Sequence record: PZ862964.1
From: a phage
Length of the DNA stretch: 64,000 nucleotides
Direction: 5' to 3' (one strand)
Part shown: positions 58,001-61,704 of the stretch, one piece after another
How positions within the stretch are numbered: position 1 is the stretch's first letter
Layout: each line of letters opens with the position of its first letter
Made by a program: the position numbers and the translations under genes
Notes under the pieces: generated by a model
Databases searched by the model: none
What the model was told of the DNA's origin: nothing
Seen by the model: the letters and a program-made list of their open reading frames with translations, nothing else

Positions 58001-59512
58001 TTATAAATTAACTGTTTTCATTACGTAATTGAATTTTTCATCTGCGTAGCGCTGAATACGATCAATGCCGTGTTTTAAAAGATAGTTCAAATGAACATAT
58101 TTCTTTTTCGTATTAGCAGATTTTGGCTTAACACCACAATCATCTATGAGGTCCCAGACTGTTGCTATTGTCTTAGAACCATGCTTACGTAATACACGAC
58201 CGATTGTTTGTAATACAATGATTTTTGATTTAACACCGTGCGCTAAAACAACGTGATGCAGATTTTTAACTGAAATACCAGTAGAAAATACGCCATAACT
58301 CGCTACTATAATTATTCCTTTACCATTTTCAGCTAAGGTTTTCATTATATTGCGGGTTTCGGTATCAACTTCCCCTGATACGTAATAAACTTTATCATAT
58401 TCATTTTTAATTAAATCGAAAATAGCTTTACCATGCGATACATGTTTAAACATGACAAAAGCGTTTTCATCTTTTTGCGCAAGCTTAATAGCTAATTTAG
58501 CGATCCATTTATTTCTTTTACTGAGCCCAGTAATAATTTTTATTTCTTCTTGGTAAGTTTTTCCCTTTAATTTAGTAGTGAACTCATCGGGATAGCGAAG
58601 AAAAATACTATTAATTTTTAGCTCAGTTACTTGTCCATCTTCCATTAATTTAGAAGTCGTTACTGGTTTAAATATTTCACCAAACATTCCAACATACTGC
58701 ATGATATTGGCTTTGCCATCACGTAATGAACCTGATAGACCAAATTTAAACATGCAGTTATTTAAACCTGATATGATAGATGAAATACTTTTTCCTGTAG
58801 CAAGATGGCATTCATCATTCATCATCATTCCAAACTGTGAGAACCATTCTTTTGGTTGTTTTACTACAGTTTGCCATGTACCAACAACGACTGGTGCATC
58901 ATTTTTATATTTATCATCTTTTGATGCTCCGCCACCAATTTTCTTTATCATTGCATGACTGAATAAACGATAGTCAACAAAGTCATCAGCCATCTGAGTT
59001 GTTAGAGCAGTTGTTGGAACAATGATAAGAATTTTACCTTCATAATTTTCCAAATAATATCGCGCAAGCAAAGCTTGAATTAAAGATTTACCTGCAGATG
59101 TTGGAAGATTAAGAATTCTACGACGATTAACTAATCCTTCGAACACTGCATCTTTTTGATACCAGTGCGGTTCAATTCTTTTATTTCCTGAATAGATTTC
59201 TAATTTAGAAAGCCATTCATCAAAATCTTTTCTTGATAATTCTTCTTTTTCGTTAATTTGTGGATCAATCCAGGCTTTATAGCCAAAATTATCACAGAAC
59301 TTTTTAATTTGCCCGACTAAGCCGAATGGAAGAAGACGATTATAATCTAAAAGACGGATTCGTCCATCCCAGTGGCCATATTTGTATTTCGGATTAAAAC
59401 GATACCCATCAGCTTCAAAGCTAAAGAAATCACGGAGTTCATGAAATGTACTTTCTTCACAATCAATTCTCACGTGACTAAAATCATAAAAATGTACTTT
59501 AATGTCAGTCAT
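58001..59512 (-). CDS. uvsW: DNA helicase UvsW
   Basis: 503-aa ORF with helicase motifs TSAGKS and DECH; TATAAATA late promoter upstream. Confidence 0.9.
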   Translation of the reverse strand: MTDIKVHFYDFSHVRIDCEESTFHELRDFFSFEADGYRFNPKYKYGHWDGRIRLLDYNRLLPFGLVGQIKKFCDNFGYKAWIDPQINEKEELSRKDFDEWLSKLEIYSGNKRIEPHWYQKDAVFEGLVNRRRILNLPTSAGKSLIQALLARYYLENYEGKILIIVPTTALTTQMADDFVDYRLFSHAMIKKIGGGASKDDKYKNDAPVVVGTWQTVVKQPKEWFSQFGMMMNDECHLATGKSISSIISGLNNCMFKFGLSGSLRDGKANIMQYVGMFGEIFKPVTTSKLMEDGQVTELKINSIFLRYPDEFTTKLKGKTYQEEIKIITGLSKRNKWIAKLAIKLAQKDENAFVMFKHVSHGKAIFDLIKNEYDKVYYVSGEVDTETRNIMKTLAENGKGIIIVASYGVFSTGISVKNLHHVVLAHGVKSKIIVLQTIGRVLRKHGSKTIATVWDLIDDCGVKPKSANTKKKYVHLNYLLKHGIDRIQRYADEKFNYVMKTVNL

Positions 59513-59562: not shown

Positions 59563-60243
59563 ATGATAGATAAAGATTATATTGCAGAGCTGAAGGCTCT
59601 TGATGATAATAAAGAAGCTAAAGCTAAATTAGCTGAATATGCTGAACAGTTTGGTATAAAGGTCAAAAAGAATAAATCTTTTGATAATATCGTTGTTGAT
59701 ATTGAAGAAGCCCTCCAGAAGCTCGCTAGTGAACCTATGCCGGAGACTGATGGGTTATCTATTAAAGACTTAATTGATGCTGCTGATGCTGCAGAGGGGT
59801 TAAAATATGACGATGAAGAAGTCAATCCAGAAGCAGCACTTCTGATTGATTCTCCGGTTAAATCTGACATTAAAATTGAAGTAGTAGAAACGGATAAAAT
59901 TCCTGAAAATACCGATGTTTTGATTGAAGATACTCCTTTTGTTGAAGAAAAATTTGAACAGGCTGTAGCTGAGATTATTGAATCTGAAAAGCCGTCTGTA
60001 TTTACTCTTCCAGAAAACTTTAGTCCGAATCTTCAACTGATTGGAAAAAATCCAGGATTCTGTACTGTTCCTTGGTGGATTTATCAATGGATTGCTGAAA
60101 CTCCGGATTGGAAATCTCATCCAACAAGTTTTGAGCATGCGTCAGCACACCAAACTTTATTTAGCTTAATTTATTACATTAATCGTGATGGATCAGTTTT
60201 AATTCGTGAAACACGCAATTCTTCTTTCGTAACATTAAAATAA
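59563..60243 (+). CDS. inh: Inh-like protein (possible prohead protease inhibitor)
   Basis: 226-aa acidic ORF immediately upstream of hoc; identity by synteny and size only. Confidence 0.5.
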   Translation: MIDKDYIAELKALDDNKEAKAKLAEYAEQFGIKVKKNKSFDNIVVDIEEALQKLASEPMPETDGLSIKDLIDAADAAEGLKYDDEEVNPEAALLIDSPVKSDIKIEVVETDKIPENTDVLIEDTPFVEEKFEQAVAEIIESEKPSVFTLPENFSPNLQLIGKNPGFCTVPWWIYQWIAETPDWKSHPTSFEHASAHQTLFSLIYYINRDGSVLIRETRNSSFVTLK

Positions 60244-60252
60244 GGATAACTT

Positions 60253-61671
60253 ATGGCTTTTACAGTTGATATAACTCCTAAAACACCGACAGGGGTTATT
60301 GATGAAACTAAGCAGTTTACTGCTACACCCAGTGGTGAAACTGGAGGCGGAACTATTACATATGCTTGGACTGTAGATGATGCTCCACAAGATGGAGCTG
60401 AAGCAACTTTTGATTATGTATTAAAAGGACCTGCTGGACAAAAGACTATTAAAGTAGTTGCAACAAATACAGTTCCAGAAGCTGAAGCTGAAACAGCAGA
60501 AGCTTCTACAACTATCACAGTTCAAAATAAGACACAAACGACTACCTTAGCTGTAACTCCTAATAGCCCTGACACTGGAGTAATCGGAACATCTATTGAA
60601 TTTACTGCCGCTTTAGCTTCGCAGCCATCGGGCGCAAACGCTACTTATCAATGGTATGTAGATGATTCTCCTGTTGGAGAAGCAACTTCTGCTACATTCA
60701 ATTACACTCCTGCCGAAAGCGGGGTAAAAAGAATTAAGTGTGTGGCTCAAGTAACCGCAACAGATTATGATGCACTAAGCGTTACTTCTAATGAAGTGTC
60801 ACTGACTGTTAATAAAAAGACACAGACAACTACTTTGGCAGTAACTCCCGATAGTCCTTCAGCTGGAGTAATTGGAACCCCAGTTCAATTTACTGCTGCC
60901 TTAGCTTCTCAACCAGTTGGAGCGTCTGCTACGTATCAGTGGTATGTAGATGATTCACAGGTTGGTGGAGAAACTAACTCTACATTTAGCTATACTCCAA
61001 CTACAAGTGGAGTAAAAAGAATTAAATGCGTAGCCCAAGTAACCGCGACAGATTATGATGCAAAGGAAGTTACTTCGAATGAAGTATCATTAACGGTTAA
61101 TAAGAAGACAATGAATCCACAGGTTACATTGACTCCTCCTTCTATTAACGTGCAGCAAGATGCTTTGGCTACATTTACTGCTAATGTCACTGATGCTCCA
61201 GAGGAAGCACAAATCGAATACTCATGGAAGAAAGATTCTTCTCCAGTAGAAGGGTCAACTAATGTATACACTGTTGATACATCATCTATTGGAAGTCAAA
61301 CTATTGAAGTTACTGCAACTGTTACTGCTACTGATTATGATAGCAAAACTATCACAGCAGAAGGTCAAGTTCAGGTAACTGATAAAGTTGCTCCAGAACC
61401 AGAAGGTGAATTGCCTTATGTTCATCCTCTTCCACATCGCACTTCAGCTTACATCTGGTGCGGTTGGTGGGTTATGGATGAAATCCAAAAAATGACCGAA
61501 GAAGGTAAAGATTGGAAAACTGACGATCCAGATAGTAAATACTACCTGCATCGTTACACTCTTCAGAAGATGATGAAAGACTATCCAGAAGTTGATGTCC
61601 AAGAATCGCGTAATGGATACATCATTCATAAAACTGCTTTAGAAACTGGTATCATCTATACCTATCCATAA
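60253..61671 (+). CDS. hoc: outer capsid protein Hoc with an extra tandem Ig-like domain
   Basis: 472-aa ORF MAFTVDITPKTPTGVIDE; two adjacent 96-aa repeats about 81 percent identical; conserved C-terminal region. Confidence 0.85.
   Translation: MAFTVDITPKTPTGVIDETKQFTATPSGETGGGTITYAWTVDDAPQDGAEATFDYVLKGPAGQKTIKVVATNTVPEAEAETAEASTTITVQNKTQTTTLAVTPNSPDTGVIGTSIEFTAALASQPSGANATYQWYVDDSPVGEATSATFNYTPAESGVKRIKCVAQVTATDYDALSVTSNEVSLTVNKKTQTTTLAVTPDSPSAGVIGTPVQFTAALASQPVGASATYQWYVDDSQVGGETNSTFSYTPTTSGVKRIKCVAQVTATDYDAKEVTSNEVSLTVNKKTMNPQVTLTPPSINVQQDALATFTANVTDAPEEAQIEYSWKKDSSPVEGSTNVYTVDTSSIGSQTIEVTATVTATDYDSKTITAEGQVQVTDKVAPEPEGELPYVHPLPHRTSAYIWCGWWVMDEIQKMTEEGKDWKTDDPDSKYYLHRYTLQKMMKDYPEVDVQESRNGYIIHKTALETGIIYTYP
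60529..61104 (+). repeat. tandem 288-bp coding duplication inside hoc
   Basis: Units 60529-60816 and 60817-61104 each encode KTQTTTLAVTP...VKRIKCVAQVTATDYDA..VTSNEVSLTVNK. Confidence 0.85.
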
Positions 61672-61676
61672 TCATA

Positions 61677-61704
61677 AGGGGCTTCGGCCCCTTTCTTCAT
61701 TTTT
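61677..61704 (+). terminator. intrinsic terminator after hoc
   Basis: AGGGGC-TTCG-GCCCCT followed by TTCTTCATTTTT. Confidence 0.65.

Follow-up and report, generated by a model that had tools for sequence, protein, structure and literature searches.

That Hoc, the outer capsid protein of T4-like phages, varies in its number of Ig-like domains is already stated in the literature. Hoc homologues consist of strings of 1-10 Ig-like domains, and close relatives of T4 vary greatly in these (PMC10385173). Domain numbers have likewise been reported to differ among T4-like phages (PMC11150434), and a three-domain variant has been characterised (PMC11853027). T4 Hoc itself (PDB 5vf3, 8t1x, 8t9r) is a protein of 376 aa, described in PMC10385173 as a fibre of ~180 Å. 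The Hoc proteins of RB49 (3SHS) and of Serratia phage Muldoon (PMC10385173) are built like the protein studied here, with Ig-like domains strung in a line on a conserved capsid-binding domain, but both are distant in sequence and differ in the number of domains, which is 10 in Muldoon.

Here we report on the hoc gene in a stretch of phage DNA of 64,000 nt (sequence record PZ862964.1), referred to below as the window. An original prediction, made from the letters of the window, had described a Hoc of 472 aa with two consecutive 288-bp units encoding similar 96-aa segments, and had proposed that the longer surface fibre could alter adherence or immunogenicity and that the repeat might be recombinationally unstable. 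Our main reading, to which we give a probability of about 0.9, is that the window derives from a T4-like (Tequatrovirus-like) coliphage and carries a hoc of the common D1-(D2)x2-D3-capsid-binding class, in which an ancient duplication of D2 has been kept and whose arrays vary by unequal recombination.

The hoc locus and its tandem repeat

The gene lies between inh and 24.3/24.2/rnlB as in T4, and the order uvsW - inh(hoc.1) - hoc - 24.3 - 24.2 - rnlB is the one annotated in RB27, R5505 and AndreasVesalius. Its neighbourhood consists of a 503-aa helicase on the minus strand, the 226-aa inh, hoc itself and then ORFs of 71, 92 and 334 aa. The inh gene equals in length and position the annotated inh of RB27, UGKSEcP1 and AndreasVesalius, and a terminator is annotated in R5505 at the position equivalent to the hairpin found in the window at 61676-61693 (Table 1). 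In T4, the homing endonuclease gene segE is located upstream of the hoc region (KJ477684.1, locus 1-497); it appears to be missing from the window (58001-59512) and from close relatives, in which uvsW is followed directly by inh.

The identification of the gene as hoc was confirmed by this canonical locus order and by phmmer, in which T4 Hoc (5vf3_Z) was the only PDB match to the window protein (E = 1.9e-220). The alignment falls into two blocks, residues 1-106 being aligned to T4 1-106 and residues 189-472 to T4 93-376. Together with the length of the hoc CDS in the T4 record (1131 nt), this indicates that the window protein is T4 Hoc plus exactly one 96-aa unit. As had been predicted from the 376 aa of T4 Hoc, the difference is thus one Ig-like domain, of D2 type, in agreement with the T4 alignment, Pfam, AlphaFold2 and Foldseek: T4 has one D2-type domain where the window has two, whereas D1, unit 2, D3 and the capsid-binding domain all have close T4 counterparts (Table 1). 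In Pfam, window Hoc matched PKD with 39 bits against a cut-off of 23.5, and Ig_2, Ig_3 and I-set gave sub-threshold hints.

Table 1. Coordinates of hoc, its domains and its flanking features in the window
Feature	Position	Strand	Basis
hoc, 472-aa highly immunogenic outer capsid (head decoration) protein	60253..61671, stop codon included	+	ORF; PDB match to T4 Hoc; 96.6% nt identity to an annotated Tequatrovirus hoc
Ig-like domain D1, aa 1-92	60253..60528	+	86% aa identity to T4 Hoc 1-92; beta-sandwich, pLDDT ~90
D2-type unit 1 ('type A' cassette, first unit in multi-copy Hocs), aa 93-188	60529..60816	+	Tandem Repeats Finder and repeat finder; DNA matches to other first units
D2-type unit 2 ('type B' cassette, counterpart of T4 Hoc domain 2), aa 189-284	60817..61104	+	93% nt and 95% aa identity to T4 D2; best Pfam PKD stretch at aa 195-253
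Ig-like domain D3, aa 285-378	61105..61386	+	85% aa identity to T4 D3; Pfam Ig_3/I-set stretch at aa 289-373; pLDDT ~90
C-terminal capsid-binding domain, aa 379-472	61387..61668	+	Near-identity to T4 Hoc 283-376
Terminator-like GC-rich hairpin (AAGGGGCTTCGGCCCCTT) followed by a T run, 5 nt past the hoc stop	61676..61693	+	Consensus scan
inh (hoc.1), prohead protease inhibitor, upstream neighbour fixing the synteny	59563..60243	+	681-nt ORF

Tandem Repeats Finder reported one array at 60529-61110 (period 288, 2.0 copies, 77% matches, score 689), and an ungapped repeat finder returned two 288-nt copies spaced 288 nt. The two units align in frame and without indels, with 218 of 288 nt (75.7%) and 78 of 96 aa (81%) identical, a similarity far above chance. 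The 70 nucleotide differences are distributed 15/11/44 over codon positions 1/2/3, and the longest identical run shared by the units is 17 nt. An HMM of the unit scored 196 and 195.5 bits on window Hoc, at aa 93-188 and 189-284, respectively. By direct comparison, the coordinates of the units, their length of 288 bp, the identity of ~81% at the protein level and the total of 472 aa were all correct in the original prediction.

Fold and likely reach of the fibre

The AlphaFold2 model of window Hoc, built on an alignment of 33 sequences (alignment A1), contains four successive beta-sandwich domains in residues 1-378 (pLDDT ~90), and units 1 and 2 have an identical strand pattern in it. Foldseek against the PDB matched the model to strings of four Ig domains (Dscam, Sidekick, ICAM-5) and to the RB49 Hoc crystal structure 3shs at E = 1e-9. 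The C-terminal domain was modelled poorly (pLDDT <50), probably because A1 is shallow and nearly invariant there, and it was therefore assigned by its sequence identity with the T4 domain, whose structure is solved. The hallmark of the T4 Hoc family, a capsid-binding domain homologous to T4 Hoc 281-376, is present: residues Y389, H391, W405, W406 and E451-S-R-N-G455 of window Hoc are Y293, H295, W309, W310 and ESRNG 355-359 of T4 (shift +96), and all of them are invariant in A1. In T4, Tyr293, His295, Trp309, Trp310 and ESRNG also contact gp23*, and they are highly conserved among Hoc-like proteins (PMC10385173).

Given the near-identity of this domain to that of T4, window Hoc would be expected to occupy the 155 gp23* hexamers of a capsid with one monomer each, anchored at the hexamer centre by its C-terminal domain, with the four Ig-like domains probably projecting as a flexible fibre. 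Since the four-domain T4 Hoc measures ~180 Å, one more domain should add roughly 4-5 nm to T4's ~18 nm. The extra domain would also provide a second surface of D2 type, a type implicated in mucin binding in one relative; in PNJ-9 Hoc, S183-L184-T185 in D2 is required for MUC2 binding (PMC11853027). The SLT triplet occurs twice in window Hoc, at 183-185 and at 279-281, so that a second surface for binding can be envisaged. Mapping in PNJ-6 Hoc placed mucin binding in D1 and not in D2 (PMC11150434), and an adaptive change in T4 Hoc maps to D3; any specific role of the additional D2 is thus a matter of speculation. In the light of the literature, it is plausible that a longer Hoc alters adherence or immunogenicity, as had been proposed, and we infer effects of the extra domain on fibre length, avidity and antigenicity. 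Rather than a new function, the additional domain would bring a change in reach and avidity.

Frequency of the two-unit form

When window hoc was searched by megablast against 50,697 phage records, full-length 1419-bp matches of 93-97% identity were obtained, and those listed include ECO95 1-6-1 (96.6%), KarlGJung (96.3%), teqskov, moskry, SHFML-11 and Yersinia phage PST. The moskry record annotates a repeat_region within its hoc. No record identical over the full gene was present among the matches listed from this phage collection (best 96.6%), which suggests that the window's own genome lies outside it. One record outside the matches listed matches part of the hoc query at no less than 99% identity, and this is probably a partial match. 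The 472-aa Hocs of other Tequatrovirus phages (RB27, PP01, AndreasVesalius, KarlGJung, teqskov and ECO95 1-6-1) have the same architecture and length as window Hoc, are 93-97% identical in nucleotide sequence and carry positionally matching units, and they differ from it by point differences only.

The protein database gave a similar picture, with 81 proteins of 376 aa among the best 120 relatives, 29 of 472 aa, 8 of 568 or 570 aa, one of 468 aa and one of 377 aa. The 472-aa Hocs belong to many database clusters, several of which have 58-167 members. Strong matches to the unit HMM numbered one in every 376-aa, two in every 472-aa and three in every 568- or 570-aa Hoc tested, always in register from residue 93 (95 in the 570-aa protein), and the two-unit coordinates, aa 93-188 and 189-284, are common to the window and all 29 database proteins of 472 aa. 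Longer forms are found in UGKSEcP1 and A6-6 (568 aa), UGKSEcP2 (570 aa) and slur14 (664 aa, four units in a hoc CDS of 1995 nt). They share with window Hoc D1, D3, the C-terminal domain and a 96-aa D2-type cassette in register, but have one or two more cassettes, including a last unit of 'type C' that the window lacks.

The share of phages with more than one unit was estimated in three independent ways. The unit 1 query matched 892 places in 617 records, with at least two places in 24 of 60 evenly spaced rows; a query of 80 nt over the unit 1/unit 2 junction had a single-piece match in 19 of 40 evenly spaced rows; and about 11 of 26 Tequatrovirus-like rows in the tblastn spread were full-length single-piece matches. 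Taken together, two or more units are present in ~40% of ~600 Tequatrovirus-like records. For the junction query, only the single-piece rows of the even sample were used; its headline of 394 records at 80% coverage or more was set aside, since it is inflated by genes with a single copy whose two half-matches were joined as one 'place'. Similarly, the 597 records with at least 80% coverage in the whole-gene query are uninformative, since a single-copy gene covers 79.7%.

A Hoc of 472 aa is thus ordinary, being present in roughly four of ten T4-like coliphage genomes. The original prediction implied that it was novel, and had named related Hoc proteins of 472 aa as what would speak against this. 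Hundreds of such proteins exist, in addition to the forms of 568/570 and 664 aa, and the implied novelty is therefore refuted. As a standard allele that occurs in hundreds of sequenced T4-like phages and is already annotated, window Hoc matters little by itself. In practice, the 376-aa Hoc of T4 is not the family norm for annotation, for the design of Hoc display or for the planning of phage therapy. Moreover, the number of D2 units, from one to four, makes the length of Hoc a natural trait that is simple to score and that could be compared with mucus adherence or immunogenicity. Our literature search returned general statements, with no explicit description of the series of one to four D2 units in Tequatrovirus, although an earlier explicit mention is possible; PMC10580926 was not relevant to the number of Hoc domains.

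Age of the duplication and changes in copy number

Between units 1 and 2 of the window, dN is 0.136 and dS is 1.2 (dN/dS = 0.11), and the same unit compared between phages gives a dS of 0.07-0.48 and a dN/dS of 0.04-0.38. Unit 1 is 84-96% identical in nucleotide sequence to the first units of moskry, A6-6, AndreasVesalius, slur14, UGKSEcP1 and RB27, versus 73-80% to the downstream units of those six multi-unit genes, and unit 2 is 86-97% identical to the second units of moskry, AndreasVesalius, RB27, slur14 and A6-6 and 93% identical to the single unit of T4. Units at the same position are therefore 84-97% identical across phages, versus 73-80% within one gene. In a clustering of 167 protein units, the first-unit (A), second-unit (B) and third- or last-unit (C) types were separated, and core residues are invariant in both units of alignment A1. 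The high dS between units and the positional matching argue that the duplication predates the divergence of these phages. The duplication is old, and purifying selection has acted on both copies, which show no homogenisation.

The proposal that the repeat is recombinationally unstable held in part. Short-term instability should be low, since the longest identical run is only 17 nt; the units have diverged by 24% and stay distinct across many phages. It is a general property of T4 recombination that it drops steeply below a few tens of identical bases. On the other side, copy number differs within a species and chimeric units are found. Over 24 kb, the closest relatives of the window (97% identity) include phages with a single unit (Ozark, R5505, TB37, Sf22 and PhiZZ6, in which the match is ~289 nt shorter and in two pieces) as well as phages with two units (AndreasVesalius, Solly and teqsoen). 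R5505 with one unit and AndreasVesalius with two belong to the same ICTV species, Tequatrovirus teqdroes. The composition of units was followed by DNA 'painting' at the 70 sites that differ between the two window units. The single unit of R5505 is of unit-1 type over most of its length (middle) and of unit-2 type at the last 13 informative sites, and the switch falls at unit positions 219-231, in an 11-nt stretch identical in both window units. It is a chimera with the 5' part of unit 1 and the 3' part of unit 2, the product expected from an unequal crossover.

Single-unit proteins more generally contain both types of cassette. By clustering, 60 of the 83 analysed were A-like and 23 B-like, while signatures of the unit middle and tail gave an A middle with an A tail in 27/83, a chimeric combination of A middle and B tail in 24/83, and a B middle with a B tail (AKE, EKE or AKT) in 16/83. 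The unit of T4 is of B type, with A-type sequence confined to a few sites at its 5' end and a short patch at the 'ALS' codons. The 5' third is mosaic in all units and the cassette types are blurred there, so that the argument for chimeras rests mainly on the middle and 3' parts. Strict A/B diagnostic positions in the protein were also tried; because the units are mosaic, just three qualified, and they were replaced by the DNA painting and the middle and tail signatures. We propose that the two 288-bp units derive from an ancient tandem duplication of a D2-type Ig-like (PKD-like) domain with purifying selection acting on both, and that the array across T4-like phages comprises one to four diverged cassettes of mosaic sequence. 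Copy number probably changes now and then by unequal homologous recombination of misaligned units, either within a genome or between co-infecting phages.

Two simpler origins of the repeat were considered. The units lie side by side in one frame, each spanning exactly one domain, and the textbook reference T4 has one unit only, as would be expected if a recent duplication specific to the window phage had produced an unusual Hoc. This is hardly credible with a dS of ~1.2, near saturation, with 75.7% DNA identity between the copies and with positionally matching two-unit genes in hundreds of records, including RB27, PP01 and AR1. Tandem repeats are also known to cause assembly errors, and the array might have been a spurious expansion of that kind. 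Such an artefact is very unlikely, since the units are kept distinct, the reading frame is intact and the 70 differences in 288 nt, which are mostly synonymous, go beyond what an assembler would invent. Moreover, near-identical 1419-bp genes are found in many independently sequenced phages (96.6% identity in ECO95 1-6-1, 96.3% in KarlGJung).

The history of the array itself would fit either a two-copy ancestor with repeated deletions or a single-copy ancestor, in which diverged A- and B-type alleles were joined in tandem by unequal recombination at co-infection. We regard the latter as possible but rather unlikely. T4-type phages recombine readily, single-copy Hocs exist in both flavours (A-like 60/83, B-like 23/83) and the units of an array are as diverged as alleles are; against this, many single-copy units look like A/B chimeras, that is, deletion products, and the four Ig-like domains of RB69 Hoc, two of them D2-like, suggest that multi-D2 arrays are old. 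The two histories are not mutually exclusive, and the window gene is an ordinary member of its class either way. Another question is whether the extra domain is a neutral spacer, kept because Hoc is non-essential and tolerant of length. Hoc is indeed dispensable in the laboratory (PMC10385173), one to four units all occur in nature and at least one two-unit hoc, that of FriedrichMiescher, is apparently split by a frameshift. A neutral insert would be expected to decay or to be lost, whereas the invariant core residues are kept in both units and dN/dS points to purifying selection (0.11 between units, 0.04-0.38 for the same unit across phages), so that we consider a mere spacer quite improbable.

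A more tentative reading, and one that we hold to be unlikely on present data, is that the D2 array of Tequatrovirus, with its types A, B and C in one to four copies, is an actively maintained polymorphism of length and antigenicity. If this were the case, mucus layers or host antibodies would select fibre lengths or combinations of cassettes, and unequal recombination at co-infection would be the switching mechanism. The polymorphism would be a balanced one, so far without explicit description and comparable to the variation of repeat number in bacterial surface adhesins, and the window gene would be one of its alleles. The cassette polymorphism at the level of populations is mildly interesting, although it is not specific to the window.

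Outside Tequatrovirus, the Hoc of the Mosigvirus RB69 (471 aa; AY303349, an early AY-series accession) also has four Ig-like domains and a capsid-binding domain, with 58.6% aa identity to window Hoc over its full length. The two domains in the middle of RB69 Hoc share only 41% identity with each other and 38-55% with the Tequatrovirus units. This pair represents a much older or a separate duplication, and the four-domain Hoc of RB69 favours old multi-domain arrays. Two records classed as Mosigvirus (species mar005p1), moskry (MN850651.1, locus 501-1919) and OZ035759.1, have a hoc with 95% nucleotide identity to that of the window; set against the 58.6% protein identity of RB69, this suggests that hoc has moved between genera or that the genome is mosaic. 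For the two-unit hoc of FriedrichMiescher (MZ501066.1, 13298-14714), the annotation gives 'Hoc part 1' and 'Hoc part 2', and the match consists of three pieces. A frameshift apparently divides the gene, which may point to a natural Hoc-defective phage or to a sequencing error.

The Hoc proteins of Klebsiella phages KP1 (Jiaodavirus, 468 aa; hoc at locus 301-1707) and Marfa (471 aa; hoc at locus 301-1716) likewise equal T4 Hoc plus one domain gained by tandem duplication of an Ig-like domain, but here it is the D3-type domain that is duplicated, the copies being 79% identical at the aa level in KP1. For comparison, the 377-aa Hoc of the Dhakavirus IME08 (hoc at locus 559-1692) has a single D3-type copy. 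The D3 duplication in Jiaodavirus and Marfavirus phages is an independent event. IME08 (NC_014260.1) also carries a second gene annotated as 'Hoc-like head decoration', located on the minus strand at locus 1725-2283, directly downstream of hoc.
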